A program made the translations under genes and the position numbers. Below, in pieces: positions 4,044-22,317 of a DNA stretch of 24,232 nucleotides (within the stretch, counting starts at the first letter, position 1; every line of letters begins with the position of its first letter). The notes beneath the pieces are model-generated. The model was not told the origin of the DNA and did no database searches. It was given only the letters and a program-made list of their open reading frames with translations. The stretch is from positions 1 through 24,232 of the forward strand of contig CAXHAT010000123.1 in the NCBI GenBank assembly GCA_964014485.1. Reading direction: 5' to 3'. The stretch comes from an uncultured Deferribacteres bacterium. Its GTDB lineage: Bacteria; Zhuqueibacterota; Zhuqueibacteria; Zhuqueibacterales; Geothermadaptataceae.

Positions 4044-5044
4044 TCGACGACCTGACGCAGGACGGCCCCAATTTTAACGTCTTTCAGGCGGTGCGCCTCA
4101 GCGAGATGCTTAGCAAATCGATGCATCCGCTGCGCAAGGACTTTTTGTTTGCGCAAGACGGACTGCATTTTCGCCCGCACGAATTTTACGGTTATCCGCC
4201 AAAAGACATCCGCGACATTGCTTTCGACAAAAAGGAAAATACGTTCAATTTCGTACTGAATTTCATGGGGTTGTATGGAATCAACGCCCCGCTTCCTTTT
4301 TGTTATCATGAAGAAGTCGCGTTGCAGCAAAACGTTCGCGGCCCCGGCAATGTCGCTTTGCAGGAATTCCTCGACATTTTCAACAACCGTCTCTACTGGT
4401 TTTACTACCAAGCGTGGAAAAAATACCGTTACCAATTTAACCTGCACGAAGATTCGGAATCCGGCGTGCGCGACCGCGTTTTTGCCTTCATCGGGCGCGG
4501 GCCATTGGCGGAGCGTAAGGATGAAGCAGTCCCGGCGATCAAACTGTTGCAATTTTCAGGAATTCTAAGTTTGCGCGTTCGCAGCAAGGCAGGGCTTTTG
4601 GTGCTATTGAGAAACATGTTTCCCAGATTCGATGTCGAGGTCAACGAATTCGTGCCGCAGCGCATTAAAATTTCCGAGCGGCCGGTCATGGGCGGGAAAA
4701 ACGGCGGAGCAACACACCGTTTGGGCGACACCAGTTTTCTGGGCTCAACAATGGTCGATTACTCCAGCCGCATTCAAATCGTCATCGGCCCGATCAGTTT
4801 TGAAGAATATTTGCAGTTTACCCCCGAAGGCGAGAACGCTCGCATTCTGCGCGAGCTATTGGCGCTTTACCTGAACGATGGCTTGACTTACAACGTCAAG
4901 TTCCTGATCAAATCCGAAACCATCGCCAAAATTTCCTGGAATGATCGACGTCTCAAACTCGGCTCGACAGTTTGGCTGGGGCGACCAAAAATGAAATTTG
5001 CAGGCGTTGAATACAGGTTCGAAAAATACACGGGAGCTAACTAA
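4007..5044 (+). CDS. tssG: T6SS baseplate subunit TssG
   Basis: 345 aa. FNVFQAVRL, NFMGLYGINAPLP, FLDIFNNRL..FYYQAWKKYR, IGPISFEEY..F.P, LGSTVWLG. Overlaps the 3' end of tssF by 37 nt, as is common for tssFG. Confidence 0.95.
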   Translation: MGTDARQNLAHLIDDLTQDGPNFNVFQAVRLSEMLSKSMHPLRKDFLFAQDGLHFRPHEFYGYPPKDIRDIAFDKKENTFNFVLNFMGLYGINAPLPFCYHEEVALQQNVRGPGNVALQEFLDIFNNRLYWFYYQAWKKYRYQFNLHEDSESGVRDRVFAFIGRGPLAERKDEAVPAIKLLQFSGILSLRVRSKAGLLVLLRNMFPRFDVEVNEFVPQRIKISERPVMGGKNGGATHRLGDTSFLGSTMVDYSSRIQIVIGPISFEEYLQFTPEGENARILRELLALYLNDGLTYNVKFLIKSETIAKISWNDRRLKLGSTVWLGRPKMKFAGVEYRFEKYTGAN

Positions 5045-5469
5045 AGCTCATGGAAAGGGTTTATGACCGTCATGCTCTCAATCTTTTGATTGTGCTGTAA
5101 GTCTTCAGAATAAAGATAGCGGCAATCCGCCTGAAGAGCCGCAGCTACGATTAGGGAATCATAAAATGAAAATCGCCATCGCTCCAAGACGTCCAGGGCC
5201 CGAGAGTAAAGTTCTATACTCACGAAAACCTGGCAAAGGGGCGAGAGAATCAATTTCAGATATTTTTCACAGTCTGTTGTTGAAAGAGGGACTGCGAATT
5301 TTCGGGTGGCAACGTTCATGAATTCCTGAACGACCTGAGAACTTATGCAGCCGTTTTTATTTTTGAATGCGGACTTTATTAATTCATTTGCTTTTTGCCG
5401 TTTTGCATGTTCGGCGGACTCGAAGGTATAGACAAAAATATTCGTGTCAATGAAGAATTTATCGCTCAT
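5041..5469 (-). CDS. vapC: PIN-domain ribonuclease toxin (VapC-like)
   Basis: FFIDTNIFVY, SSQVVQEF, FSFYDSLIVAAA and LYSEDL supply the acidic PIN residues D/E/D/D. 142 aa. Overlaps the upstream antitoxin gene. Confidence 0.92.
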   Translation of the reverse strand: MSDKFFIDTNIFVYTFESAEHAKRQKANELIKSAFKNKNGCISSQVVQEFMNVATRKFAVPLSTTDCEKYLKLILSPLCQVFVSIELYSRALDVLERWRFSFYDSLIVAAALQADCRYLYSEDLQHNQKIESMTVINPFHEL

Positions 5470-5680
5470 TCATTTCGTCCCTTGAAAATGTTTTGCCGGG
5501 CTTGGCATAGCTCAGGGATTGCATTAGATGATCATATTCTTTCAAAGTACGGTCAGCGCTAACATACTGTTCTAGCCATTCCCTGAACGTTGCATTAAGG
5601 GTAGTGCGCTCTTGTCGAGCCTTCTCTCTCGCCTTGTAAATAAGTTGTTCTTCTGCGCTTAGGGTGATGTTTTTGAGCAT
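5459..5680 (-). CDS. Ribbon-helix-helix antitoxin (VapB-like), 73 aa
   Basis: Start moved to the ATG at 5680, which is preceded by AGGAATCATT. MLKNITLSAEEQLIYKAREKARQERTTLNATFREWLEQY fits an RHH fold. It ends in FSRDEMNER and overlaps the vapC start. Confidence 0.85.
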   Translation of the reverse strand: MLKNITLSAEEQLIYKAREKARQERTTLNATFREWLEQYVSADRTLKEYDHLMQSLSYAKPGKTFSRDEMNER

Positions 5681-5696
5681 AATGATTCCTATGAAT

Positions 5697-5746
5697 GTGT
5701 ACACTGTTGTAGTGTGAAAAATATATAAGCACGACTCAGTTGTCAA
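5697..5746 (-). promoter_or_regulatory. Sigma70-type promoter and palindromic operator of the TA operon
   Basis: On the minus strand: TTGACA (5746-5741), 17 nt spacer, TATTTT (5723-5718). Between the -10 and the RBS lie a palindrome GTGTACAC (5697-5704) and an inverted repeat ACACT-N5-AGTGT (5701-5715). Confidence 0.65.
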
Positions 5747-8589: not shown

Positions 8590-10848
8590 ATGGCAATTTA
8601 TAAATATAATCAGCCTTACTATAAGCTCCATTTCGCCGAGCTTGAAGAAGATGTCGCGAAGGTGCTTTCCTTTGAAGGGGAGGAGGCGATTTCGCTGCCA
8701 TTCGAGTATCGCATCGAATTACTCTCCGAAGATCCGGAGCTCGATCCAAACAAAATTCTCAACAAAAAAGCGACTTTTGTGATGACGCGCGAAGACGCGC
8801 CGATCAAAATTCACGGCATTATTTCACGCTTTGAGCAGCGTGGACGAACGCCGGATTACGTTTCATATTTTGCCGTGCTATCGCCCAAGCTCTGGCGCTT
8901 GAATCTGACTTATCAGAGCGAAATCTACCAGCATATGGATATCGCGCAAGTGATCGAGCAGGTTATGAAAAGCTCGGGTTTTTCGAATGAGGATTTCGAG
9001 ATAAACCTGTCGGGCGCTTATCCGGTAAAAGACTACGTCGTGCAATATCGCGAGACCAATTTCAATTTTCTCAACCGCCGTCTGGAACATTACGGCATTT
9101 TCTATTTCTTCGATCATCGCAATGACAATGACGTTATCGTGTTTACCGATGCCAATCAAGCTCTCTCGCCTATCGCCAATTCTGAAAATATTTATTATAA
9201 CCCAAACAGAGACCCGTTGAGCGACATCGAGACGATCACCGAAATTACCTGTCGTGAGGAGGTGGTGACCGGCTTGGTACGGTTGAAGGATTACAATTAT
9301 CTTCATCCCGAAAAACAGATTGTCGTGCAGAACCAAATCGATGCACAAGCTCCGGGGATGTATTACGAGTACGGCGATCACTTCGACGACGAAGGCCAGG
9401 GCGGCGCTTTGGCACGTGTGCGTAATGAGGAGATTCTCGCCAAGAGCAAAGTTTTCTCCGGCACGAGTGATTGCCGACTGTTCCGCGCCGGAGCAAAATT
9501 TACGCTTGGAAAGCACTATCGCGACGCCTGGAACGACGAGTACGTTCTTACGACGATTCGGTCACGGGGCACCCAGCGCGGCTTATTCAATATTCTCGCT
9601 GAACCGTCGAAGGTCACGCCCACTTACGAGAATATTTTTGAAGCGATCCCAGTCGATGTTGCTTACCGCCCGGCGCGACGCACGCCCGTCCCGCGTATTC
9701 CCGGCATTATGAGCGCAAAAATCGAATCGGGCTCCGGTGATGAGTATGCTTTCATCGACGATCACGGCCGCTACCGGGCCAAGATGCTGTTCGACCTCAG
9801 TGACGCCAGCAACGGGGAAGCGACGCTGCCGATCCGCCTGACGCAATCTTACTCCGGCGCGAATTACGGTATGCATTTCCCCAATCACGTCGGGACGGAA
9901 TTGGTCTGGGCGTGCGTCGATGGCGATGTTGACCGCCCGGTTGGAATCGGAACCGTGCCGAATCCGTCGAACAACTCGCCGGCGGTTGGCGGAAACAAAG
10001 CGCAGAGCGTGATCCGCACCGCCGGGCAAAACGAGTTGACGATGGATGACACAACCGGTAATGAAAACATTTATTTACATGGCACGAAAGACTGGACCAT
10101 CGACATCGTCAATGACAAAAATCAAACCATTGGCCATGACGAGTCCGCTTCGGTTGGCAACGACCGCATTCGCGAAGTCGGCAAAAACGAATCGGTGTCT
10201 ATCGGCAATGATCTCCGGAAGCAGGTTGGCAATGACGAAAGCCATTCAGTGGGTAACGATCGCACGCGCCAGGTTGACAATAATGAAACGATTTCGATTG
10301 GCAAGAACCGAAGCAAAGTCGTTGGCGATGACCAGACGGAGCAAATTGGCAAAAACAATTCGCTGAGCATCGGAATTGATTTTAAAGAACAAGTCGGTTC
10401 CAACAGACAAATCGACGTCGGTGCAAATCATGACGAGAATGTCGGCGCTAACAAAAGCGTTTCGGTCGGCGGGAATCAAAACGAGACTGTGAGCGGCGCA
10501 TCGATTGAAAATGTTTTGAAAGCAAAGACTGAGAACGTGGGGTTGGCGAAGACTTTGACTGTTGGCGGCGCTTGCCAGGTCAGCGTCGGGCTGGCGATGA
10601 ATGAAACCGTCGGTGGCGCTAGAATGGAGCAGGTCGGGAAGATAAAAAATGTTATGGTCGGCATGACGAGCACCGAAAATGTGGGTTTGGCGAAAATCAT
10701 TTCGGCGGGACAAAAAATTGAGTTGATCTGCGGCAAAGGCAAGATTTCTATCGAGAGCAACGGCAAGATTTCAATCGATGGCTCGGAATTGCATCTCACT
10801 GCCTCGGGCCCGGTAAAAATCAACGGGGAAGTGATCGATTTGAACTGA
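8590..10848 (+). CDS. vgrG: T6SS spike protein VgrG (copy 1)
   Basis: FEGEEAISLPFEYRIEL, VQYRETNFNFLNRRLEHYGIFYFF, DYNY, IDDHGRY, YGMHFP..GTE, GDVDRP, ENIYLHGTKD, then 8-aa gp5-like repeats. Ends in IDLN. Confidence 0.96.
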   Translation: MAIYKYNQPYYKLHFAELEEDVAKVLSFEGEEAISLPFEYRIELLSEDPELDPNKILNKKATFVMTREDAPIKIHGIISRFEQRGRTPDYVSYFAVLSPKLWRLNLTYQSEIYQHMDIAQVIEQVMKSSGFSNEDFEINLSGAYPVKDYVVQYRETNFNFLNRRLEHYGIFYFFDHRNDNDVIVFTDANQALSPIANSENIYYNPNRDPLSDIETITEITCREEVVTGLVRLKDYNYLHPEKQIVVQNQIDAQAPGMYYEYGDHFDDEGQGGALARVRNEEILAKSKVFSGTSDCRLFRAGAKFTLGKHYRDAWNDEYVLTTIRSRGTQRGLFNILAEPSKVTPTYENIFEAIPVDVAYRPARRTPVPRIPGIMSAKIESGSGDEYAFIDDHGRYRAKMLFDLSDASNGEATLPIRLTQSYSGANYGMHFPNHVGTELVWACVDGDVDRPVGIGTVPNPSNNSPAVGGNKAQSVIRTAGQNELTMDDTTGNENIYLHGTKDWTIDIVNDKNQTIGHDESASVGNDRIREVGKNESVSIGNDLRKQVGNDESHSVGNDRTRQVDNNETISIGKNRSKVVGDDQTEQIGKNNSLSIGIDFKEQVGSNRQIDVGANHDENVGANKSVSVGGNQNETVSGASIENVLKAKTENVGLAKTLTVGGACQVSVGLAMNETVGGARMEQVGKIKNVMVGMTSTENVGLAKIISAGQKIELICGKGKISIESNGKISIDGSELHLTASGPVKINGEVIDLN
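10111..10734 (+). repeat. 26 x 8-aa (24-nt) gp5-type beta-helix repeats in VgrG1
   Basis: NDKNQTIG HDESASVG NDRIREVG ... QKIELICG; 624 nt equals exactly 26 octamers. Confidence 0.85.
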
Positions 10849-10870: not shown

Positions 10871-11935
10871 ATGGAATTTCACAATTACACGCCGTTTTCG
10901 CCAATGACGTTTGAAAGCCTGGATTTGGACGACAATCCATTTCAGGTTATCGTTTTGCGCGGCACGTTCAACATTATTCCAGACGCTCCTCTGAAACCCG
11001 ATCCTGACCAAAAACGCGTTGTCACCGCCGATGAATTCTATGGTGAACCAACGACGAGCAGCATGCGGTTTGAAAATGATCTCGCGCCGTTCAAGCCGCG
11101 CTCCGATATCGTCATCAACGCAATCGCTCATGCGCCCGGGGGCAAACCTTCGCGGCAGTGGGACGTCGCCGTCCAAGTTGGCAAATTGCAAAAGCGCTTG
11201 ACAGTGACGGGGCCACGATACTGGAAGCATCATGCGATCAGTGGCTGGGAATTGGCCAAGCCGGAATCTTGTACGCAGACGCTGATCCGCTATGAACACG
11301 CCTTTGGCGGAGGGTGGCTGCATAAGGACAAATCGGGCGTTTACGAAAAGAATCCCGTTGGCTCCGGTTTCGTGAACAAGAGATTTGCTGACAAGAAGAA
11401 GCTTATACCGGCGCCGCGAATCATGTCGCCAGCCGATCCCGCTCCGAAGCTCGGCGGAACATATAAACCACAAGGCTTCTCTGCAATTGGCAAATCGTGG
11501 CTGCCGCGTCGTAAATACGGTGGAACGTATGACGAACGATGGCTCAAAGAACGCAGTCCCAAGCTCCCCAAAGATTTTGATTTCCTTTATTACAACTGCG
11601 CCCACCCGGACTTGATCTACGACGGCTATCTCAGGGGCGATGAAGTTGTCGTGTTAAAAAACCTGCACAAACGGCGTCCGTTTTTACAATTCTACTTGCC
11701 GAATTTTCAGGTGAGCGCGGCGATCACTGATCACGATGCTTATCGTTACGCCGCTTTGGGAAACCTCGACACACTCTATCTTGACGTCGAAGAGTCGCAA
11801 GCATTTTTGGTGTGGCGCATCACGCTCCCGATTTATGAGGATGGGATCAAACGCATCGAAGCGAGGTTGAAGCAGCCCTCAGACAAAATAAAACATGAAC
11901 CAATGGCAACGAATGGCAGAAGAGCATTGGCTTAG
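10871..11935 (+). CDS. DUF2169-family T6SS chaperone/adaptor (copy 1)
   Basis: N.TPF, ENDLAPFKPRSDIVINAIAHAPGG, VTGPRYW, YEHAFGG, NPVGSGF, W.PRRKYGGTYDERW, LPKDFDF.YYNCAHPDL. Sits between vgrG and a DUF4150 gene. Confidence 0.9.
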   Translation: MEFHNYTPFSPMTFESLDLDDNPFQVIVLRGTFNIIPDAPLKPDPDQKRVVTADEFYGEPTTSSMRFENDLAPFKPRSDIVINAIAHAPGGKPSRQWDVAVQVGKLQKRLTVTGPRYWKHHAISGWELAKPESCTQTLIRYEHAFGGGWLHKDKSGVYEKNPVGSGFVNKRFADKKKLIPAPRIMSPADPAPKLGGTYKPQGFSAIGKSWLPRRKYGGTYDERWLKERSPKLPKDFDFLYYNCAHPDLIYDGYLRGDEVVVLKNLHKRRPFLQFYLPNFQVSAAITDHDAYRYAALGNLDTLYLDVEESQAFLVWRITLPIYEDGIKRIEARLKQPSDKIKHEPMATNGRRALA

Positions 11936-11944
11936 GAAGAACTC

Positions 11945-14002
11945 ATGGCGAATAACCGCGCGGTCAACAAAAGTGCTGAAGCGCTTCTCGTTTGCCAGTC
12001 CCCGGACGTCTGTAAAACGCCGATGGGATCAAGCATGGTTCCGGTCGCCTACCAAATTCTTTCGCAATTCGACAAAGCCGTAAACACAGCGACAAGGGTC
12101 AATTATGGTGGTGCGCCCGCGTTCCATGCCGAAAGCTTTCTGCCAACGGTAACGGGTAATGAAGCCGGCGTTGGCGGCGGATTGTCTTCCGGAGTTAACG
12201 TTGGCGCTTGCCGCCCGACAAATTGGAGCACAACGATACGTACGGAAGGCAACTGGATTGTTCGGCATGACGATGTCTTTCTGATGAACTGCGCCGGGCC
12301 AAAAGGAAGCGGCAACACCAAGGGGAAGGTGATTTATGTAAAAATTGTGCAACTGGCCTGGATCAATGAAGACGGCACGATTGAAGTTGAGAAAGCGGCG
12401 GTCATTGAAGACGCTGAAGGGGACGTCCAAACGCTGGAAAGCGTCGAATTGCGCGACGCCGAAGGGAATGTTTTAGAAAGCAAAGCAAAGCTATCGGAGC
12501 ATGAAGCCATCCATCCGGCCCCGGAATCCGAGCCGTTGCAAATCGATCTGGGAAGAAGCAGCAACACTGGGCCGATCTTGGGCAATGAGGCCATTGGAAC
12601 GGTTGACGAGCATGGACGCATTTATCTTGGCGACGGCATGTATTCCGATCCCGTCGATATGGGAGAGCTCGATTCAACGCCGATAAAGCCCGAAGTGCCA
12701 ACGGACGCGCCGTCCGCCTCGGAACCGGATTTTCCCATCGAAATAGCCGATGATGATCCTGAGTTGTTGAATAACCCGGACTATCTTGAAGCGCTCGAGG
12801 CAGAGCAGGAAGCGCAAAAACAAATCGATGCGATCAATGAAGAACTGGTACGAGAAGCCGCGAAAACCGCGGCTGATGTTGCCGGATTGATCGATCCTAC
12901 GCCGATTAGCGATGCCGTCGCGGGGGCGATGGCCTTGCGAGACGGCGATTTTGTCGGCGCGGGACTCAGTATGCTTTCGTGGATTCCTTACGCAGGCGAC
13001 GCGATTGCAAAACCGCTCAAGGGCGCTCGAACCGCGGCCAGGGTGGCTAAGCTGACGAATAAGCTGAAAAAATTGATGCAGAAGCTCGAAAAGCTTAAAG
13101 ATGCTGTCAAAAGGGCTAAAGAGCGTGTTAAGGAGATGCTTAGAAGAAAACGAGCATCACAAAAGGCCCCGGAAGCGCCGCCTCCCCTGCCGAAGAAGTC
13201 CGCCGGTGGAACTGATGGAGGGAATGTCCCGAAAAGGAAGCCAAAACTCAAAAAAGTCAGCAGAGAAATCCCTTGTTTTCCGGAAGGAACTCTGGTTGCA
13301 ACGAAGAGTGAATTAGTGCCAATTGAGCAGTTATCGGTAGGTGACAAGGTTCTCACATATGACGAGACGGGCCTGAGAACCCTTGAGAAACCAATTACGA
13401 AAGTTCTACGAAATAAAGCTGTTTGCTTTATCGAAATTGCTTTGGCCGGAGACATTATTCGGACAACTAAGAAACATCGGTTTTGGGTCCAAAATCAACA
13501 AATGTGGCTTGATGCTCAATTTCTATCTTCCGGTATGCTGCTACGCAATTCTATTGGCGAGAATTGTAAAATTCGAGGTATTTCAACTCAGGAAGTTGAT
13601 GAGCGCGTTACCTACAATTTGACGGTTGATGACTGCCACACTTATTATGTAGGTCAATCGGGCATACTTGTACACAATACAGGGGATGCGGCCGCCGGGC
13701 AAATCTATCTTGGATATCTCAATGGTGAAGTCGTCTATGTTGGACAAACGAAACAAACGTTGGCTCAACGAATGAAGGGGCACCTGAACGACGCCTTGAG
13801 GTCTCCTGAGAAGTATGGCTGGAAACAAGATATGAAGATGGAGTTAGTTGACGGTATGGACGGCCTGGACGCCGATCAAATGAACTATCATGAGCGCAGA
13901 ATTTATGATGAGTTAAATGAACAGGGGCATGATCTGAAAAATCGTCAAGTGCCGTATACTGATGAAAAGATGGAAAAATTAGCCAAGAAGTACTGTAACT
14001 AA
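11945..14002 (+). CDS. Specialised PAAR-like (DUF4150) polymorphic toxin with HINT autoprocessing domain and C-terminal GIY-YIG-like nuclease
   Basis: N-terminal SPDVCKTP...TGNEAGVGGG..SG...VRHDD...MN (DUF4150). Middle DVAGLIDPTPISDA...WIPYAGDAIAK pre-toxin-like segment. HINT from CFPEGTLV (aa 444) through TKKHRF to TYNLTVDDCHTYYVG..GILVHN (aa 578). Tip GQIY-x9-YVGQT...QRMKGH...YHE...LKN. Confidence 0.85.
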   Translation: MANNRAVNKSAEALLVCQSPDVCKTPMGSSMVPVAYQILSQFDKAVNTATRVNYGGAPAFHAESFLPTVTGNEAGVGGGLSSGVNVGACRPTNWSTTIRTEGNWIVRHDDVFLMNCAGPKGSGNTKGKVIYVKIVQLAWINEDGTIEVEKAAVIEDAEGDVQTLESVELRDAEGNVLESKAKLSEHEAIHPAPESEPLQIDLGRSSNTGPILGNEAIGTVDEHGRIYLGDGMYSDPVDMGELDSTPIKPEVPTDAPSASEPDFPIEIADDDPELLNNPDYLEALEAEQEAQKQIDAINEELVREAAKTAADVAGLIDPTPISDAVAGAMALRDGDFVGAGLSMLSWIPYAGDAIAKPLKGARTAARVAKLTNKLKKLMQKLEKLKDAVKRAKERVKEMLRRKRASQKAPEAPPPLPKKSAGGTDGGNVPKRKPKLKKVSREIPCFPEGTLVATKSELVPIEQLSVGDKVLTYDETGLRTLEKPITKVLRNKAVCFIEIALAGDIIRTTKKHRFWVQNQQMWLDAQFLSSGMLLRNSIGENCKIRGISTQEVDERVTYNLTVDDCHTYYVGQSGILVHNTGDAAAGQIYLGYLNGEVVYVGQTKQTLAQRMKGHLNDALRSPEKYGWKQDMKMELVDGMDGLDADQMNYHERRIYDELNEQGHDLKNRQVPYTDEKMEKLAKKYCN

Positions 14003-14081
14003 AAACTTCCAGTTTTAATTACGACGTTTTACATTCTACAGAAGACGAAATGTATTTGAATCATAAAAAATGAGGCGATAA

Positions 14082-14330
14082 ATGGCTTGGGAAGATTTTG
14101 AACGAAACGGAGTTGAAGGAATGACGGGTGATATTCCTTTTGATGAATTTGCGCTTGCCATTCGCCGAATCGTGAACGCATATCAAGACAGGTTTGACAG
14201 GAACCCGACGATGGCTGAATTGGCGCATGCTTTTGAAAATGTCATCGGCTCGGACCCGGAAAGCTTCGTATCTGACCCTCAGGGGCTCGAATTGGCGGAT
14301 ATCATCGTAAAGCGTCGCATGGATAATTAA
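14082..14330 (+). CDS. Putative cognate immunity protein (82 aa, family not recognised)
   Basis: Small acidic ORF with RBS GAGG immediately downstream of the toxin. The function is inferred from position only. Confidence 0.6.
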   Translation: MAWEDFERNGVEGMTGDIPFDEFALAIRRIVNAYQDRFDRNPTMAELAHAFENVIGSDPESFVSDPQGLELADIIVKRRMDN

Positions 14331-14521
14331 ATTTTTTGATAAACGGATAACGCTGAATCATTCAATCCATTCACTTGCTTTTGAAAGAAATCCTGGGACG
14401 TTTTCCACCAACATACTGTCTATGGAATAATAACCAGCGGGCAGGACGGCGATGTTCGCGTATGGACTGCTTTTGAAGCCTGTTGAACTTTACCCGGCTA
14501 TTCGAAAATGGAGACCTGAGT

Positions 14522-16741
14522 ATGGTCGATTACAAACATAACGAGCCCTATTATAAGCTCAAATTTAGCGAGCTCGAAGAAGACGCCGTCCACGTTTACG
14601 GCTTCGAAGGCCATGAATCGATTTCACGCCTTTTCGAATATCGCATTGAATTGCTCTCGCAGGATCCCGAAATCGACGCTACGCAAATTTTGAATAAAAA
14701 AGCCAGCCTGATTTTCACACGCGGGGAAGAAGACCCCATCAAAATCAACGGAATCATTTCTCATTTTGAGCAGCGCGGCAAGTCGCCGGATTATGTCTCG
14801 TACTATGCCGTTCTCGTGCCCAAAATGTGGCGGCTCGGGCTGAATTTCAACAGCAAGATTTTCCAGCAAGTCGATCTCGAAGCAGTCGTTACGGAAGTCT
14901 TGCAGGAATCAGGATTCGCCAGCGAGGATTTTGAATTTCAACTCAACAATGCCTACCCGCAATTTGAATATTGCGTACAATACCGCGAAAGTGACTTCGA
15001 TTTCGTCAATCGTCGATTGGAGCATTTCGGGGTCTATTATTACTTTGACCATCGCGACGAAAACGACGTGATCGTTTTCACCGATAGCATCGACAATCTA
15101 CCCGTGATTTCCCAGGAAGACGACATCGTCTACAACCCAAACAAAGACCCGATGCCGAAACTGGAGACAGTCACTGAGCTTTCCTGCAAAGAAAAAGTGG
15201 TCACCGGCAAGTTTAAAGTGAAAGACTACAATTTTGAGTATCCAGACAAAGACTTGCAAGCTGAAGAGCAAATCGATTCGGAAGCGCCGGGCACGTTTTA
15301 TGACTACGGCGATCATTTCAAGGACGAGGGCGAAGGCTCCTTTCTCGCCAAAATGCGTAACGAACAAGCCGTTGCCGAAAGCAAGCTTTTCCATGGCAAG
15401 AGCGACTGCCGTCTGTTTCGTACCGGCTTTAAATTTACTTTTGACGTTGGCGAAGATTATCGCAATGATTGGAGCGGCGAATACATCTTGCTTAAAAAAG
15501 CGGCGCGCGGCAACCAGCACAATTTGTTTGCTTACCTGCCGTCCGCCCGAACCGATGTCCCGACCTATGAAAATATCTTTGTCGCCATGCCGACGGATCG
15601 CGAGTATCGTCCGCCGCGCATTACGCCGATTCCACGCATTTCCGGCATTCTCACCGCCAAAGTCGAATCCGGTGCCGGCGATGAATACGCTTTTCTCGAC
15701 GATCAAGGCCGCTACAAATACAAAGTGCCGTTCGATCTCAGCGGCGACACCGACGGCGAGGCTTCGCGCCCGGTACGCCTTTCTCAGCCCTACTCCGGCC
15801 CGGATTACGGCGTTCATTTCCCGAACCACGCCGGAACTGAATTGGTCCTTTCCTTCGTTGACGGTCATGTTGATCGCCCGCTGGCGTTGGGCACCGTGCC
15901 TAATCCGAACAATGTTTCGCCGTCGCTGGGCGGCAACAAGCCGCAGGCCGTGATCCGCACCGCCGCGCAGAACGAATTGCATTTCGACGACACGACCGGC
16001 AGCGAGAACATCTACTTGCACGGCACAAAAGACTGGACCATCGACATCGTCAACGACAAGATGCAAACCATCGGTCATGACGAAACCGCCTCCGTCGGCA
16101 ACGACCGCACCCGCGACGTTGGCAACAACGAAACGATCACTATCGGCAACAACCGCGACAAAAGCGTCGGCAACAACCAGACGGAAGCCATCGGCGCGAA
16201 TAAATCGATTCAGGTTGGCGCCAACCATGATGAGTCGATTGGCTCCAGCATGTCGATCACCGTTGCGCAAACGTTGACGGAAACGGTCGGCATTAATTAC
16301 GCTGAGACGGTCGGCGCCGCGATGGAATTAACTGTCGGCGGGATGCTGACGCAAAGCGTTGGCGCGGCTAAAACCGAGTCCGTAGGCGGAAGCAGCAGCG
16401 AGAGCGTCGGAAAAAGTAAGTCAGTTACGGTCGGTAAAAGTCTTTCGGAAACTGTTTCAGACAACATTTCGCGCAACGCCGGTAAAAATTTCAAGCTCGA
16501 AATTGGCGAAAACGGCGACTTTCTGATCGGTAAAAAAACCAAATTTCAGTCCGGCGACGACCTGACCATCAGCAGCGGAAAGAAAGCAGTGATTGACGTC
16601 AAGGATCAATTGACAATCAAGTGCGGCAAAGCGAGCATCATTATGAAAAAGAACGGCGACATTCAGATCAAGGGCAACAAGATCAATATCAAAGCGTCGG
16701 GCGACATCAAGATGAAAGGCTCGAAAATAGCGCAAAATTAA
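14522..16741 (+). CDS. vgrG: T6SS spike protein VgrG (copy 2), 739 aa
   Basis: Start moved to ATG 14522: GGAG RBS upstream, and MVDYKHNEPYYKL aligns with VgrG1 MAIYKYNQPYYKL. Same VgrG motifs (VQYRESDFDFVNRRLEHFG, LDDQGRY, GHVDRP, ENIYLHGTKD). Ends in IAQN. Confidence 0.96.
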   Translation: MVDYKHNEPYYKLKFSELEEDAVHVYGFEGHESISRLFEYRIELLSQDPEIDATQILNKKASLIFTRGEEDPIKINGIISHFEQRGKSPDYVSYYAVLVPKMWRLGLNFNSKIFQQVDLEAVVTEVLQESGFASEDFEFQLNNAYPQFEYCVQYRESDFDFVNRRLEHFGVYYYFDHRDENDVIVFTDSIDNLPVISQEDDIVYNPNKDPMPKLETVTELSCKEKVVTGKFKVKDYNFEYPDKDLQAEEQIDSEAPGTFYDYGDHFKDEGEGSFLAKMRNEQAVAESKLFHGKSDCRLFRTGFKFTFDVGEDYRNDWSGEYILLKKAARGNQHNLFAYLPSARTDVPTYENIFVAMPTDREYRPPRITPIPRISGILTAKVESGAGDEYAFLDDQGRYKYKVPFDLSGDTDGEASRPVRLSQPYSGPDYGVHFPNHAGTELVLSFVDGHVDRPLALGTVPNPNNVSPSLGGNKPQAVIRTAAQNELHFDDTTGSENIYLHGTKDWTIDIVNDKMQTIGHDETASVGNDRTRDVGNNETITIGNNRDKSVGNNQTEAIGANKSIQVGANHDESIGSSMSITVAQTLTETVGINYAETVGAAMELTVGGMLTQSVGAAKTESVGGSSSESVGKSKSVTVGKSLSETVSDNISRNAGKNFKLEIGENGDFLIGKKTKFQSGDDLTISSGKKAVIDVKDQLTIKCGKASIIMKKNGDIQIKGNKINIKASGDIKMKGSKIAQN
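16052..16627 (+). repeat. 24 x 8-aa gp5-type beta-helix repeats in VgrG2
   Basis: NDKMQTIG HDETASVG NDRTRDVG ... DQLTIKCG; 576 nt equals exactly 24 octamers. Confidence 0.85.
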
Positions 16742-16754
16742 CAGGAGAGAGTGA

Positions 16755-17264
16755 ATGCTGGAAACGGCGGCGGTTTTAACGGAATTGCTCCGTCTGGAGC
16801 AAGGCGCAGTTCAACAGGCGGAGCCGGGCGGCGAAGTCCTGGTCCAAGCTGGCGACGGTGACACGACCGTCTCATGCAAAATCTTGCGGACAAGCATCGG
16901 CGCCTTCCCTGAACTTAAAGCAGGGGATAAAGTGTTGGGCGTTTTCGATACGAACGCCAAAACCGGCTACATTCTTGGCGTTGTTGAAACCTACAATCCC
17001 CAAAAAGACCCGCTGGATGAATTGAGCAGCAAACTCAGCATGCCGGAAGACGAAGTCAACATCGAACTGCCGCGTAAGCCGAAGGATGTTAAGGTGAACG
17101 GAAAAAGGATTGTTTTTGAGGCGGATCACGAAATTCAGCTCAAGTGCGGCAAAGGCTCAATTTTGATGGATCGCCAGGGCAAGATTGTCATTCGAGGCAC
17201 GAATTTGATCAGCCGGTCAAGCGGCATGAATAAGATTAAAGGCGCCGCCGTCAATATAAACTGA
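16755..17264 (+). CDS. Short spike-like accessory protein (DUF6484 / PA0096-like; OB-fold plus VgrG-type tip)
   Basis: RBS AGGAGAG. N-terminal ..AGDKVLGVF.....GYILGVV resembles the gp5/gpV OB-fold. C-terminal EIQLKCGKGSILMDRQGKIVIRG...IKGAAVNIN. Lies between vgrG and DUF2169. Confidence 0.7.
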   Translation: MLETAAVLTELLRLEQGAVQQAEPGGEVLVQAGDGDTTVSCKILRTSIGAFPELKAGDKVLGVFDTNAKTGYILGVVETYNPQKDPLDELSSKLSMPEDEVNIELPRKPKDVKVNGKRIVFEADHEIQLKCGKGSILMDRQGKIVIRGTNLISRSSGMNKIKGAAVNIN

Positions 17265-18283
17265 TGAAGCTTGAGAATTTAACGCCTTTCGAAGCCGAAC
17301 GGTACGGCCTGAACGACGAAAACGGGAAAAATTTACTGTTGGTCGTGATGAAGGCAACGTATTCAATTACCCCAGACAATAAACTTGAACTTGCCGAGAA
17401 GCAAGAGCCGATTGAAATGGCCGATCAGTACTATGGGGAACCGGGTTATTCCAGCATCAAGTACGCTTCTGATTTTTCGTTTGATAAAACGGCGACCGAC
17501 GTCGCATTGCTTGGCCATGCTTATGCACCCAAGCGCGGCGCAAAGGAATCTGAGGTCAGTTTGCAAATCGGGCCGGTGCAAAAAAAGGTAAAAGTCTTTG
17601 GCGACCGCCGCTGGAAAAAACATGTCGGCGTTTCGATGATTTCTTCTTCGGAACCGTTTGAGAAAATTCCCCTGGTTTATGAACGTGCATTTGGCGGCGT
17701 TGACGAAAGCCATGCGGAATCAAAAAATCACGAAGCCGAACCGCGTAATCCGATCGGCGTCGGGTTTAGAGCGAAGAAGAGCAAGCTCAAAACGGACGGC
17801 GCGGCGCTGCCGAATTTTGAAGATCCGGACAATCCAATAAAAAAGCCGAGCAGTCGTCCCGGCCCGGCAGGATTCGGATTTATCAGCCCGGCGTGGCAGC
17901 CGCGCTTGGGATTTGCCGGAACGTATGATGAAGCGTGGCAAAAAAGCAGATCGCCGTTGCTGCCGGATGATTTCGACAAGAATTTTTTCAATTCGGCGCA
18001 TCCAGATCTGGTTTGCCCAGGATTTTTGAAGGGCGACGAACCTGTAATGGCAAGCGGCGTTTCGCCGCTTGGACCGCTCCGGTTTTCGCTTCCGGGCGTA
18101 CAGCCGCTTTGCTCTGTCGAACTCGTCGAAAATGACGAAGAGCAGCAAATAGAAATGAATCTGGCAAAAGCCGTTCTCGATGCTGACGACCGGCGCTTGA
18201 TTCTGGTGTGGAGCGGTAATATGAGAATTGAAGGCGAATGTCAGGACGTTGAAAACGTAAAATGTGAGCTTGAACAGGAGTAA
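17264..18283 (+). CDS. DUF2169-family T6SS chaperone/adaptor (copy 2)
   Basis: ENLTPF, DVALLGHAYAP, VFGDRRW, PLVYERAFGG, NPIGVGF, PAGFG...WQPR..FAGTYDEAW, LPDDFD..FFNSAHPDL. TGATG coupling with the upstream gene. Confidence 0.92.
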   Translation: MKLENLTPFEAERYGLNDENGKNLLLVVMKATYSITPDNKLELAEKQEPIEMADQYYGEPGYSSIKYASDFSFDKTATDVALLGHAYAPKRGAKESEVSLQIGPVQKKVKVFGDRRWKKHVGVSMISSSEPFEKIPLVYERAFGGVDESHAESKNHEAEPRNPIGVGFRAKKSKLKTDGAALPNFEDPDNPIKKPSSRPGPAGFGFISPAWQPRLGFAGTYDEAWQKSRSPLLPDDFDKNFFNSAHPDLVCPGFLKGDEPVMASGVSPLGPLRFSLPGVQPLCSVELVENDEEQQIEMNLAKAVLDADDRRLILVWSGNMRIEGECQDVENVKCELEQE

Positions 18284-18286
18284 AAA

Positions 18287-18751
18287 ATGGGCGTTACTGT
18301 TGGCGTAAACAACCTCTCCGTCGTACATAAAAGCAGCGGCGGCATTACCATAGCTTTCCCGGACGTGTGCAAAACCCCCGCTCCTCCGGCGCCTTTCGTG
18401 CCGATTCCTTACCCGAACATTGCCAAATCCGGCGATACGGCCAAAGGCAGCAAAAAAGTAAAATGCGACGGCAACCCGATTTGCCTAAAGGATTCCAATT
18501 TTAGCATGAGCGTAGGCGACGAAGGCGGCACTGCCGGCGGCGGCATGATCTCGAGCAAAATCAAAGGCAAGGCGGAATTCATCAATTTCTCTTTTGACGT
18601 CAAAGTCGAAGGAAAAAACGTCTGCCGCGCTTTCGACATGATGCTGCATAACGACAAAAACACCCCGCCAGTCCCGGTTTTGCAACCGCCGATTATTGTG
18701 GTAATTCCTGAAGAAAAGCCGGTTTGTTTAATTTGTGAAGAAGATTTTTAA
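18287..18751 (+). CDS. Stand-alone PAAR-like DUF4150 (PIPY-type) spike-tip protein
   Basis: VVHKSSGG...FPDVCKTPAPP..VPIPYPN...GDEGGTAGGG..S...FSFDVKVEGKNVCR..D.M.HN..N. Short Pro-rich tail ending CLICEEDF. RBS AGGAG. Confidence 0.92.
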   Translation: MGVTVGVNNLSVVHKSSGGITIAFPDVCKTPAPPAPFVPIPYPNIAKSGDTAKGSKKVKCDGNPICLKDSNFSMSVGDEGGTAGGGMISSKIKGKAEFINFSFDVKVEGKNVCRAFDMMLHNDKNTPPVPVLQPPIIVVIPEEKPVCLICEEDF

Positions 18752-18786
18752 TTTAATGGAAAATTTTTGGTTAGAAGCGCCTCGAC

Positions 18787-19962
18787 ATGGAAAATAGCAT
18801 GTTAAACAAAGATTCAATCGTTGTAAGTGGCATTGGCATGGTGTCTTCTTTAGGACACGACAGTGCAATGTCATGCTCTGCATATAGGGCGGGTCTGTCA
18901 AGGGCGAGCGAGTTAGATGAGTTTATGGTGCTGAACGAAAACAATAACGAATTTAACAATGTTATTGCTCAACAAATCCCTGTTATTACGAGTGGCTTTG
19001 AAGAAGCAGGTCTACTATCTAGGATTGGTATAGCGGCATTACAGGATCTGTTTAAGCAAAACGATTTTCAGAGATTTAACGACGGTAAGACAGGATTTTT
19101 TATCGCGCTGCCAAACCCTAAACGCTTCAACAATAATATTCCAAATGATGACAGCGAACGAACGATTCATAATGAGCAGAATACATCCTTTAGTCGCCCT
19201 AACACTCATGACGGCGCTTTTCTATCTCAGCGACTTTTGGAGAGTCTTGTAGAGTCAGCAGAATGTCACATTTTAAACCACAATATTCGAGAGTTTTACT
19301 GTGGCCATTCAGGCGTTATTTTCGCTATCGAAAATGCTGTTAGGGAAATTTCAGCAGGAAAAATCGAAAGGTGTATCGTTGGCGGTTTGGATAGCTTGCT
19401 TGAATCCGCTACACTAGAATGGTTGTTTAGAAATCAACGCCTTAAGGTAGATGAGAAAGCTTCAGGATTACAACCGGGTGAAGCAGGCGGTTTTATTTTA
19501 ATCGAGAAATATTCTGATATTCAATCAACAAAAAGCTGCGTCTTAGCAGTAATAGACGCAACTGCTACGGCGTACGAACCTGACCATCTTTTCACCGGTA
19601 AACTATCTCAAGGCGGCAGCTTATCAAAGGCAATTCAGCATGTGCTTTTAAAAGATTCCTCCGCCCCGTCTACACATCATTGGGTAATTTCAGATCAAAA
19701 TGGAGAGTATGCTAAGGCAAATGAGTGGAGTTACGCATTAACGAAATTAATGGCATCTTTCTCGGATTTGAGTGATGCACTCATAGAATATCCTGCAGTT
19801 TCCTTTGGTGATACAGGAGCTGCAAGTGGTGCGCTCGCAATTTGTCTAGCAATAAGAGCATTTGTAAGAAAATACGCGCCATCAAATAAGGCAATCATAA
19901 TTTCGGCCTCTGATAAAGGAGAGCGCGCAGCGTTGCGCTTGATGAATCATTACTATAACTAA
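18787..19962 (+). CDS. Thiolase/ketoacyl-synthase-fold T6SS adaptor (PRK06147 / PA0098-like)
   Basis: IVVSGIGMVSSLG...CSAYRAG, GHSG, CIVGGLDSL, PGEAGGF, SDQNGE...EW, PAVSFGDTGAASG. Lacks a canonical KAS xACxS context. The start codon is uncertain (18787 or 18799). Confidence 0.82.
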   Translation: MENSMLNKDSIVVSGIGMVSSLGHDSAMSCSAYRAGLSRASELDEFMVLNENNNEFNNVIAQQIPVITSGFEEAGLLSRIGIAALQDLFKQNDFQRFNDGKTGFFIALPNPKRFNNNIPNDDSERTIHNEQNTSFSRPNTHDGAFLSQRLLESLVESAECHILNHNIREFYCGHSGVIFAIENAVREISAGKIERCIVGGLDSLLESATLEWLFRNQRLKVDEKASGLQPGEAGGFILIEKYSDIQSTKSCVLAVIDATATAYEPDHLFTGKLSQGGSLSKAIQHVLLKDSSAPSTHHWVISDQNGEYAKANEWSYALTKLMASFSDLSDALIEYPAVSFGDTGAASGALAICLAIRAFVRKYAPSNKAIIISASDKGERAALRLMNHYYN

Positions 19963-19979
19963 ATGGGAGTAATAGTTGA

Positions 19980-20621
19980 ATGGCAGTTGACGGTGCAGTC
20001 ACACATTATCAAAAGACGAATACCAGAGAGAGCGTTCTTCATAGAAAAAGCGGTTTCCCAAATAATCTTTCTGGGTATGTAGACGGAAGCACGCCTTGGA
20101 AAAATCAGGTTCATCATGTCTTGGTCTGCTGTTTATTTCGTCAAGCAAAGATTGAGGAGGCGCTTGGCAATGATACGAATCGAGCAGAATATGTGAATGA
20201 TTGTTTATGGGTCACAAAATGGGATATAAATCGCAAAGACAATTTACTTTTAATGCCGCTCTGGTCCACCTACCTGAATAAATATAAGAACTCGACATCG
20301 GTTCCTGCTGGAGGGCCTCAGAATCTTCCAGCGCACACTAGAGACCATCCTAAGTATACAAAGGAAGTTAAAATGTGGCTAACAGATAATGTCTGGAATG
20401 CATTAAATGTTCAAAAAGAGCCGCACAAAGTTGATTTGGATACAATACTCACGCAGTTGGAGAATGGTGAGAAAAAATGGGTTGCTGCCTTGATAAAAAG
20501 GGGCTCTAATCGGCAAGGGGGTACTTGGCAGGCTTGGGTTAATAGAAAACAGAATTCGCTCTGGTACCAACCTTTTTCTATGACCAAAACAGCGTGGTGC
20601 AAACCACGATTAGCACCATAA
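19980..20621 (+). CDS. AHH-like (HNH/EndoVII fold) nuclease toxin, stand-alone cargo effector
   Basis: QVHHVL ... WDINRKDNLLLMP ... LPAHTRDHPKY follows the Tox-AHH motif order (xHH, DINxxxN..LP, HxxxHxxY). It is followed by an Imm11-like gene. Confidence 0.78.
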   Translation: MAVDGAVTHYQKTNTRESVLHRKSGFPNNLSGYVDGSTPWKNQVHHVLVCCLFRQAKIEEALGNDTNRAEYVNDCLWVTKWDINRKDNLLLMPLWSTYLNKYKNSTSVPAGGPQNLPAHTRDHPKYTKEVKMWLTDNVWNALNVQKEPHKVDLDTILTQLENGEKKWVAALIKRGSNRQGGTWQAWVNRKQNSLWYQPFSMTKTAWCKPRLAP

Positions 20622-20664
20622 GAGTGAACATTTCAAAACTCACCACTAAATAATATAGGAAAAG

Positions 20665-21246
20665 ATGATGAATTATCTGATATGGGAACATACAGTTGAT
20701 GACAGGTTGTGTAGCTTGAACCCGCTTGAAAATGTTGAGAACGCATTTGAACTTAGTTATGGTGTGTCCAGAATAGACGGATTTCCTCCTGATGCTTCTT
20801 TCAGAATGAATCCAGAGTATAAGAAGGCGATAAAACTTTCTGATGCCTTAGATAATATCGTATTTTTAATTGTGGCTTCGAAGCGGCTCAAAGAGTTTTT
20901 TGAAATGGAAAAGTTAATAAATATTGAATATCTGTCAGTAACCATTTTTAACCATAAGAACCGAATTGCAAGCGATGAATACTATATTGTACATCAGGTA
21001 GGTACTCAAGATTGTATCGACCAAGAAAAATCTGATTTTGATTGGAACATAATTAATCCAGATCAGATTTCTTCAGTAGATCATTTAGTTTTAGATGAAT
21101 CAAAGGTTGATCCCAATGCAAAACTCTTTAGAGCAAAGCATCTCCCAAGCACAATTTTTATCCGCAAGGATCTTGCAGAAAAGATAGAAGCAACTGGTTT
21201 TACAGGAATACGATTTGAGGACATTGACAGTTTTGAAAAGGTGTGA
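20665..21246 (+). CDS. Imm11 / DUF1629-like immunity protein
   Basis: IVASKRLKEFF..IEYLSVTI...YYIV.....DCIDQEKS...LVLDESKV....LFR......IFI..DLAEKI...GFTG..F. Directly after the AHH-like toxin. Confidence 0.8.
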   Translation: MMNYLIWEHTVDDRLCSLNPLENVENAFELSYGVSRIDGFPPDASFRMNPEYKKAIKLSDALDNIVFLIVASKRLKEFFEMEKLINIEYLSVTIFNHKNRIASDEYYIVHQVGTQDCIDQEKSDFDWNIINPDQISSVDHLVLDESKVDPNAKLFRAKHLPSTIFIRKDLAEKIEATGFTGIRFEDIDSFEKV

Positions 21247-22061
21247 AAACGCTTTTTAAAGGGAATTACTTCATGGAATTAAGAACCATTAAAGAAGAGT
21301 TGGGAGCATCAATCGAATTTGATTTAGAAGATATTGGCTATAACAATAAAATACAAGAAATTGGCAGCTTGTGCGAAGATATAAGCGAAAACTACAGATC
21401 GCTTGCAATATGTCGGCTCCTGCTAGAAGCTGACACAGATGGATTCTATCATGATCTTTTGAGAAGCGCTCAACTTCGACTTTACTATTTGACTCGTTGT
21501 CATCATGAAAAATATCTCAAAAATCCTCGCATTATTGCCAGCGAAAGCGACTCCTTTTTTGATGCTCTTGCTGTAAAGGATTTCGATCTGGCGAAAAGGA
21601 TTGCCGAACTCTCATCAAACTCTTGGTGGCCAGATGATGAATATGAGGAGGACTTCTATTATTCACACCTTGTTCATAAATTTATCATGTCGTATCCCGA
21701 TTGGCCAGACGACATTCGGGTAATTTTAGAAAATTTTGAAAATTCTCTACAGGGCGACAAAAGTGCAAGATTAGATCTGTGTAAAGGGTTGGTTTCGATT
21801 GATCAAGCAGCTTTTGATGAAGCTTTCTATGACTTGATTGATGAAAGAAAGTTACAAATTGAAAGAGAGAGAGAAATGGCTCTGGCAGATGAAATCTCAT
21901 TTCAAGTTGGACAACATGTTTTTATAGAAGGTTTGGCGCTACTGAGAATTGCTGAACGAATTGGATTAGTTGTTCAACAGGAGTATCTGTATTGCCCTTC
22001 GCTATGCAGCATTCCGATGAAAAAGTCTTTTCCCTTTGACGGATACCCAAGAAGAAATTGA
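21243..22061 (+). CDS. Imm49 / DUF1910-like immunity protein
   Basis: Helical acidic protein with FFDALA..DFDLA..IA, DQAAFDEAF..L and VFIEGLALLRIAERIGL.V..EY.YCP. Start is either GTG 21243 (GTGA overlap) or ATG 21273. Confidence 0.68.
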   Translation: MKTLFKGNYFMELRTIKEELGASIEFDLEDIGYNNKIQEIGSLCEDISENYRSLAICRLLLEADTDGFYHDLLRSAQLRLYYLTRCHHEKYLKNPRIIASESDSFFDALAVKDFDLAKRIAELSSNSWWPDDEYEEDFYYSHLVHKFIMSYPDWPDDIRVILENFENSLQGDKSARLDLCKGLVSIDQAAFDEAFYDLIDERKLQIEREREMALADEISFQVGQHVFIEGLALLRIAERIGLVVQQEYLYCPSLCSIPMKKSFPFDGYPRRN

Positions 22062-22317
22062 ATCTATTGAAATTGCCCGGTCCGTTGAACAAAGTTTCAA
22101 AGTCGAGAGCATCTTGCTCGTCTCCTGGCCCCCAAATGGCATAATGCAAATTGAGTGAATACCTCAGTCGAGTAAGCGATTTTGGAACACAGTCTTGCGT
22201 TTCCTTCTCGCGGCGTTTTGAGTTGTCAGACTTTATTCTATTGCCTGAATCGTTGTGCAAACATTGTAGTTGACGTTTTCATTTGACAAGTATGACCTAC
22301 TTACAATAGTATTCAAA

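Follow-up and report, generated by a model that had tools for sequence, protein, structure and literature searches.

A candidate vgrG-linked type VI secretion effector-immunity module with a HINT-coupled GIY-YIG toxin domain and an 82-residue partner

Contig CAXHAT010000123.1 of an uncultured Deferribacteres bacterium (assembly GCA_964014485.1), which we analysed whole (24,232 bp of an 8.4-Mb assembly) and refer to as the window, raises the question of what kind of toxin sits at the end of a spike protein encoded beside its type VI secretion system (T6SS) genes, and whether the short gene behind it encodes the matching immunity protein. An initial annotation made from the letters alone had described one polypeptide that joins a DUF4150 spike tip, a HINT domain and a C-terminal domain of 107 amino acids (aa) bearing the residues of a GIY-YIG nuclease, followed by an acidic 82-aa open reading frame (ORF). 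Each of these elements is present: the polypeptide is a 685-aa ORF at 11945-14002 with Pfam matches, the motifs GQIY-x9-YVG, QRMKGH, YHE and LKN are all found in the translation of 13679-13999, and the ORF that follows at 14082-14330 has an isoelectric point (pI) of 4.31. We consider it probable that the locus is a vgrG-linked T6SS effector-immunity module consisting of a HINT-released GIY-YIG nuclease and an 82-aa immunity protein, a reading for which the identity of the domains, their fold, the conserved residues, the linkage of the genes and a recombination junction are shown directly. The features on which the argument turns are as follows.

11945..14002, plus strand: polymorphic T6SS effector, 685 aa, composed of a PIPY/PAAR-like domain, a carrier region, a pretoxin HINT (PT-HINT) domain and a GIY-YIG toxin domain
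11990..12292, plus strand: Tox-PAAR-like (DUF4150/PIPY) domain, aa 16-116 (PF13665, E 2.8e-25, 89 bits)
13274..13678, plus strand: pretoxin HINT domain, aa 444-578 (PF07591, E 8.4e-18; Hint_2 from aa 443; TIGR01443 at aa 556-579)
13679..13999, plus strand: GIY-YIG (URI-fold) toxin domain, aa 579-685, 107 aa (Y588, Y598, G600, R609, H613, E650, N666)
14082..14330, plus strand: candidate cognate immunity gene, 82 aa, an N-domain-only member of an unnamed family whose proteins are about 190 aa long

The effector ends in a GIY-YIG nuclease domain

A phmmer search of 1.84 billion representative proteins with the 107-aa domain returned 35 representatives at E<=1e-3, in all of which the domain is C-terminal; the toxin subfamily is rare. 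Across 24 aligned relatives, and numbered from the start of the domain (add 578 for the full protein), Y10, Y20, G22, H35, K49, L63, E72 and C106 are invariant, while G12, T24, R31, N88, P92 and L101 are conserved in at least 90%. The residues that had been named at the outset fall into these two groups (Y10, Y20, G22, H35 and E72 into the first, R31 and N88 into the second) and are therefore not a chance set. Within GQIY588-x9-Y598-V-G600, the two tyrosines and the glycine correspond to those in the VY and YVG of canonical GIY-YIG proteins. Pfam GIY-YIG (PF01541) matches the whole 685-aa protein at aa 593-633 (E 0.0034, 18.1 bits, cut-off 22.6), 22 of the 24 members match this model at E<=1 (best 2e-7), and five of the 24 full-length relatives exceed its cut-off. 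When the toxin profile was compared by hhalign with a reference of 28 canonical GIY-YIG proteins, taken from the window's genome and 12 relatives, the two aligned with a probability of 95.3% (E 2.2e-8), pairing both tyrosines, the glycine, Arg31, His35 and Glu72 with their canonical counterparts; the alignment ends at column 80, short of N88 (N666). Single-sequence and profile searches of the PDB with the toxin domain gave no meaningful match.

The fold agrees with these assignments, and the tip models as a GIY-YIG domain, as had been proposed. An AlphaFold2 model built on 28 sequences (mean predicted local distance difference test score, pLDDT, 94.3) contains strands at residues 7-14, 17-24 and 53-63 plus helices, with an extra C-terminal helix that ends in the invariant cysteine. 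Foldseek against the PDB filled ranks 1-11 with chains of I-TevI, UvrC and PD-T4-3 at template modelling scores of 0.56-0.63, the I-TevI match having a probability of 0.98 and an E-value of 0.08. VIA-align, run over 48,161 representative chains, also placed I-TevI first (Z 7.2, 81 residues, 2.8 Å), followed by UvrC (Z 6.2), PD-T4-3 (5.8), a plant Grx N-domain (5.8) and T4 EndoII (5.3), with Slx1, HIGLE and R.Eco29kI scoring under EndoII. These structural matches carry weight because enzymes named or known as GIY-YIG fill the top of both lists. The toxin domain shares only 16-20% sequence identity with its best structural matches, the I-TevI catalytic domain and the UvrC N-terminal domain, and differs from them in having no DNA-binding or repair partner domain and in its extra C-terminal helix, whereas its Tyr, Tyr-x-Gly, Arg, His and Glu are ordered and spaced as in canonical GIY-YIG proteins. 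Overall, these results identify the tip as a GIY-YIG nuclease domain whose catalytic set is complete.

Two of the invariant positions, K49 (aa 627) and C106 (aa 684, in the terminal 'KYC'), lie outside the canonical GIY-YIG residue set.

The toxin domain lies behind a spike tip and an intact HINT domain

8590..10848, plus strand: VgrG1 spike protein, 752 aa (Phage_GPD, E 5.6e-75; Gp5_trimer_C, E 8.8e-39)
10871..11935, plus strand: DUF2169 accessory protein, by its description in PMC11883445 a chaperone of DUF4150/PIPY spike tips (PF09937, E 3.5e-84)

Upstream of the effector, the window encodes a T6SS cluster comprising TssC, Hcp, TssE, TssF, TssG, ClpV, VgrG1 and DUF2169. The VgrG1 gene precedes that of DUF2169, the end of which lies 9 nt from the start of the effector gene. 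Sachar et al. 2025 (PMC11883445) describe DUF2169 genes as strictly co-occurring with VgrG and DUF4150 and as needed for the spike complex. With a DUF4150 (PF13665) score of 89 bits against a cut-off of 31 and with vgrG and DUF2169 adjoining, the N-terminal domain of the effector is recognisable as a PAAR-like spike tip; the position of the PIPY motif reads PVAY (aa 33-36).

Behind this spike tip, and directly before the toxin domain, stands the HINT domain that the initial annotation had placed there. It scores 65.4 bits against the PT-HINT model PF07591 (aa 450-578, cut-off 27.7) and 19.9 bits, above cut-off, against the intein C-terminal region model TIGR01443 (aa 556-579), and its residues Cys444 (Cys1 of the domain), T508-x-x-H511 and the terminal H577-N578 are all intact. 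The arrangement is common to the subfamily, given that PT-HINT is found just before the toxin domain in 21 of 24 relatives examined and His-Asn directly before it in 24 of 27. The residue after His-Asn is mostly D, E, A, Q, L or G among the relatives, and since in most of them it is no splicing nucleophile, C-terminal cleavage rather than splicing is the expected chemistry. N-termini vary among the relatives, which carry Tox-PAAR-like (P0012), DUF4280 (P0007) or eCIS_core (P0011, P0022, P0024) domains.

Recombination of toxin cassettes onto resident carriers is the standard behaviour of polymorphic toxins, and the effector bears the marks of such an event. Over its carrier (aa 1 to about 440) it shares 42-47% identity with PAAR-like proteins, two of them named from Polyangium, that have other toxins (Ntox50, GH-E, CdiA_C), and in the five longest alignments this homology breaks off at aa 437-447. 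The guanine-cytosine (GC) fraction is 0.535-0.546 in the carrier, 0.42 in the HINT domain, 0.45 in the toxin domain and 0.29 in the spacer that separates the latter from the immunity gene, and the drop, at window positions 13265-14081, marks an imported cassette. The toxin domain was found in none of the 100 relatives of the window's genome that were searched. Because the carrier homology ends and the GC fraction falls at the same place, and because the toxin was not found in these relatives, we conclude that the HINT domain, the toxin domain and the immunity gene form a mobile cassette recombined onto a resident carrier.

The 82-aa ORF corresponds to the N-terminal domain of an unnamed family

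The 82-aa protein contains 17 Asp and Glu residues against 8 Lys and Arg, and its ATG is preceded at 7 nt by GAGG, which resembles a ribosome-binding site; a promoter and terminator scan of 13600-14700 yielded nothing useful above shuffled sequence. No Pfam or NCBIfam family matches it, and none of 31 members of its wider family matches a described immunity family (Pfam Imm1-Imm74, SUKH, CdiI and others) at E<=1. The family profile matched only designed helical repeats in the PDB, and an ESM Atlas look-up of a 192-aa relative gave no usable match. The identical 82-aa sequence is recorded on six contigs.

The initial proposal of a possibly new immunity family thus stands as far as Pfam and NCBIfam go. 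The protein is no orphan, however, a point that the initial annotation had no means of seeing: it aligns to the N-terminal domain, and to that domain alone, of an unnamed family of about 190 aa, and ends four residues past the domain boundary. This family comprises at least 48 clusters at 90% identity, mostly of 187-202 aa, annotated 'hypothetical' and with no Pfam domain, from cyanobacteria, Candidatus Thiomargarita and metagenomes. The 82-aa protein keeps 20 invariant positions of the family.

Two unusual members bear on how the family is built. At one metagenomic locus (L014), a divergent HINT-GIY-YIG toxin is followed by an ORF (2569-2967) that contains two tandem N-domains of about 82 aa each, after which the contig ends. 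In a second case, a 209-aa protein (P0080), an unrelated N-terminal part of about 95 aa is joined to the C-domain of the immunity family, which means that the C-domain also moves on its own.

The tandem N-domains and the chimera indicate that the N- and C-domains are separable modules. As it is the N-domain that is always kept beside the toxin, this domain is likely the toxin-specific module, and we infer that the window gene is a minimal form of the immunity gene rather than debris. A stronger version of this idea, which we put forward tentatively and at slightly less than even chances, is that the N-module, with its roughly 80 aa, suffices as an inhibitor of GIY-YIG nucleases, one so far undescribed, of which this genome would carry the minimal natural form; the C-domain would then serve as an accessory or as a second immunity module in its own right. 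As a small, helical, acidic protein, the 82-aa form may occupy the DNA-binding face of the nuclease. Complex prediction of the toxin domain with the 82-aa protein scored 0.00 in two runs without controls and is uninformative on binding.

Members of the family are linked to the toxin in other genomes

The pairing of toxin and partner recurs elsewhere. A toxin-first search of reference genomes, with a single protein as query, found one locus, in a cyanobacterial metagenome-assembled genome. There, a 192-aa ORF lies 68 nt behind the gene for a HINT-GIY-YIG protein and shares 53% identity with the 82-aa ORF across its first 77 residues (E 5e-32); 400 further genomes of the same phylum gave one weak toxin match. 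The linkage count rests mostly on an immunity-first scan of metagenomes with the family alignment, which recovered 17 loci, 13 of them with a substantial gene (L002-L014). They divide according to what lies upstream, as follows.

Complete toxin domain 30-83 nt upstream: L003, L004, L009, L010, L011, L013, L014 (7 loci)
Toxin 3' remnant alone upstream: L002, L008 (2 loci)
No toxin upstream: L005, L006, L007, L012 (4 loci)
Short immunity-gene fragments alone: L015-L018 (4 loci)

Scores are identical in three pairs of loci (L010/L001, L003/L004 and L006/L007), each of which probably represents the same sequence. After merging of identical-score loci, six distinct complete toxin-immunity pairs remain besides the window. 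The co-occurrence of homologues that was expected from the initial annotation is thereby borne out, with the immunity family linked to the toxin family in other genomes and encoded 30-83 nt downstream of it. Toxin identities and immunity N-domain identities co-vary across 21 pairs from seven loci that are related and not independent (r 0.94).

Copies of the immunity gene without a toxin of their own sit within toxin/immunity arrays. At L008 (1-3101), an Ntox15 toxin and a HEAT-repeat protein are followed by a 53-aa remnant of a GIY-YIG tip and then by a full immunity gene, an orphan cassette array of the kind typical of polymorphic toxin loci.

A proposed mechanism and its alternatives

From these findings we infer a sequence of secretion, self-cleavage, DNase activity, toxicity, binding and neutralisation. 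The 685-aa protein would cap the VgrG1 spike via its DUF4150/PIPY domain, aided by the DUF2169 chaperone encoded just upstream, and the T6SS spike would then fire it into a neighbouring cell. There the HINT domain (Cys444, TxxH, His577-Asn578) is predicted to cut the chain after Asn578 and so release the free 107-aa GIY-YIG nuclease, which would cleave target DNA through a Tyr/Arg/His/Glu-metal centre of the kind found in I-TevI and UvrC. In the producer, the putative immunity protein encoded 79 nt downstream would bind the nuclease and block it.

Several observations weigh against such a module. For the toxin, these are that the tip scanned alone reaches 22.0 bits, just below the Pfam GIY-YIG cut-off of 22.6, that the Foldseek E-values are weak (0.08), and that a Z of 7.2 lies within the range where chance fold matches occur. 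For the partner, they are that four of the 13 substantial immunity loci have no toxin upstream, that the 82-aa protein departs from the family at the near-invariant positions S39D, K41N, T53N, Y62F and G72A, and that its AlphaFold2 model alone, built on 31 sequences, is poor (pLDDT 57.9, three helices). Above all, the C-terminal domain, some 110 further residues present in 30 of 30 aligned relatives, is lacking from the 82-aa ORF and was not found in any frame downstream of 14330 or across the 8.4-Mb assembly, such that the ORF could be a crippled remnant. On this last point hangs an alternative in which a two-domain immunity gene was truncated and lost its function, leaving the 82-aa ORF as a relic, with protection coming from elsewhere or with the effector unexpressed or inactive here. 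Its end near the domain boundary adjoins the inserted vgrG2 module, and a search of proteins of 45-144 aa recovered no sequence but the window's own, both of which fit a relic. Yet a toxin with all its catalytic residues and an intact HINT domain would be lethal to a cell without immunity, and the ORF itself is intact, has its GAGG, retains the 20 invariant positions and recurs with the same sequence on six contigs; the tandem N-domains of L014 and the C-domain chimera P0080 likewise show that the two domains are separable. We therefore judge a relic to be unlikely.

Two further alternatives concern what the effector does. The domain might have the GIY-YIG fold and not be a general DNase, acting instead as a nuclease for particular sites or structures, as an RNase or as a module that binds without catalysis, as could be argued from the invariant K49 and C106, from the Tox-URI1 signature [RK]xxE, which only two of 24 members carry, and from the want of a sequence match among solved structures. 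This we regard as very improbable, given that the family conserves the same catalytic Tyr, Tyr, Arg, His, Glu and Asn as active enzymes do, that the domain always forms the C-terminus of a secreted-toxin architecture (PAAR-like, DUF4280 or eCIS_core) and is followed by an immunity gene, and that a GIY-YIG-annotated effector, TkeA, is reported to degrade lambda DNA (PMC12302616). Rather less remote, though still doubtful, is that the HINT domain does not release the toxin, so that the effector acts uncleaved or the HINT domain serves folding or loading only; self-cleavage by pretoxin HINT domains is termed a prediction in PMC13483458 and PMC3482391. The intact Cys444, TxxH and His-Asn of the effector, the His-Asn before the toxin in 24 of 27 relatives and the above-cut-off match to the intein C-terminal splicing model all argue for release. 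On balance, a HINT-released nuclease with the 82-aa protein as its immunity partner remains the reading that we prefer.

Relation to known effectors

The initial annotation had taken a GIY-YIG T6SS effector to be unusual, which does not hold up against the literature. Zhang et al. 2012 (PMC3482391) name T6SS among the delivery routes of the Tox-URI1 and Tox-URI2 toxins that they describe, give HINT as a protease, and list as their immunity families Imm9, 12, 14, 26, 39, 44, 51 and 54. Going by that description, Tox-URI1/2 and the effector studied here have in common a C-terminal URI (GIY-YIG) nuclease fold, a T6SS route, a HINT releasing module and a downstream immunity gene; none of the listed Tox-URI immunity families matches the 82-aa partner. 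The Tox-URI1 signature given there consists of Y, YxG, R, [RK]xxE and N. All but one of these elements occur in the window's toxin domain, which differs from Tox-URI1 as described in reading N-Y-H-E in place of [RK]xxE, a position at which R or K is found in two of 24 relatives. A Pfam scan of the domain at E up to 10 listed GIY-YIG and GIY_YIG_2 and no Tox-URI model. As the [RK]xxE element is missing, we assign the window toxin to a URI/GIY-YIG toxin subfamily of its own. Members of this toxin clade may be among the proteins listed in Additional File 1 of Zhang et al. 2012.

An experimental precedent comes from Yersinia pseudotuberculosis, whose TkeA, an Rhs protein annotated GIY-YIG and secreted by T6SS-3, was tested in 2025 and is described as degrading lambda DNA, being toxic in E. 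coli and being neutralised by TkiA, encoded downstream (PMC12302616). By the published descriptions of TkeA and TkiA, this Rhs protein is set apart from the PIPY-HINT effector of the window; an Rhs repeat was detected at E<=0.001 in none of the 24 scanned relatives of the toxin domain. PAAR-Rhs-GIY-YIG candidates are also reported in Salmonella (PMC10469887), and a list for Stenotrophomonas includes Rhs tips of the GIY-YIG kind (bioRxiv 10.64898/2026.07.13.738213).

The delivery module has counterparts as well. Agrobacterium tumefaciens Tde2 is an example of a VgrG-DUF2169-DUF4150-type effector. Modules of this VgrG-DUF2169-DUF4150 (PIPY) kind, for example in P. aeruginosa and in V. parahaemolyticus (VP1415), are described in PMC11883445 and, as far as that account goes, have the gene order seen in the window, a C-terminal toxin with an immunity gene and the same loading logic, while the window effector departs from them in its toxin domain, its inserted HINT domain and its PVAY in place of PIPY.

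The kind of effector is therefore already known, with both its architecture and its enzyme class in print, and the general understanding of T6SS effectors is unchanged by it. What remains new is a rare GIY-YIG toxin subfamily, nearly always coupled to HINT and found as a cassette on PAAR-like, DUF4280 and eCIS_core carriers, together with its partner, an unnamed immunity family that is present here in N-domain-only form. Our literature search, which did not take in the supplements of the cited papers, found no paper on this immunity family, which has no name that a text search could use. From the natural 82-aa form one can tell which part of the family is most likely protective, and it offers a small candidate GIY-YIG inhibitor that is directly testable.

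Other genes of the window

Two minus-strand genes lie between tssG and clpV, namely a PIN-domain gene at 5041-5469 (E 1.7e-10) and an overlapping 95-aa ORF at 5459-5746, which together (5041-5746) look like a VapBC-type toxin-antitoxin pair inserted within the T6SS core cluster. Downstream of the candidate immunity gene, a second spike module (14483-23673) encodes VgrG2, which is 52% identical to VgrG1, a 169-aa ORF, DUF2169 and a stand-alone PAAR-like protein of 154 aa that has a true PIPY motif. Past the latter come ORFs of 391 aa and 213 aa of no known kind, Imm11, Imm49 and a HEAT-repeat protein, and the module as a whole may represent a cargo effector with an immunity array.

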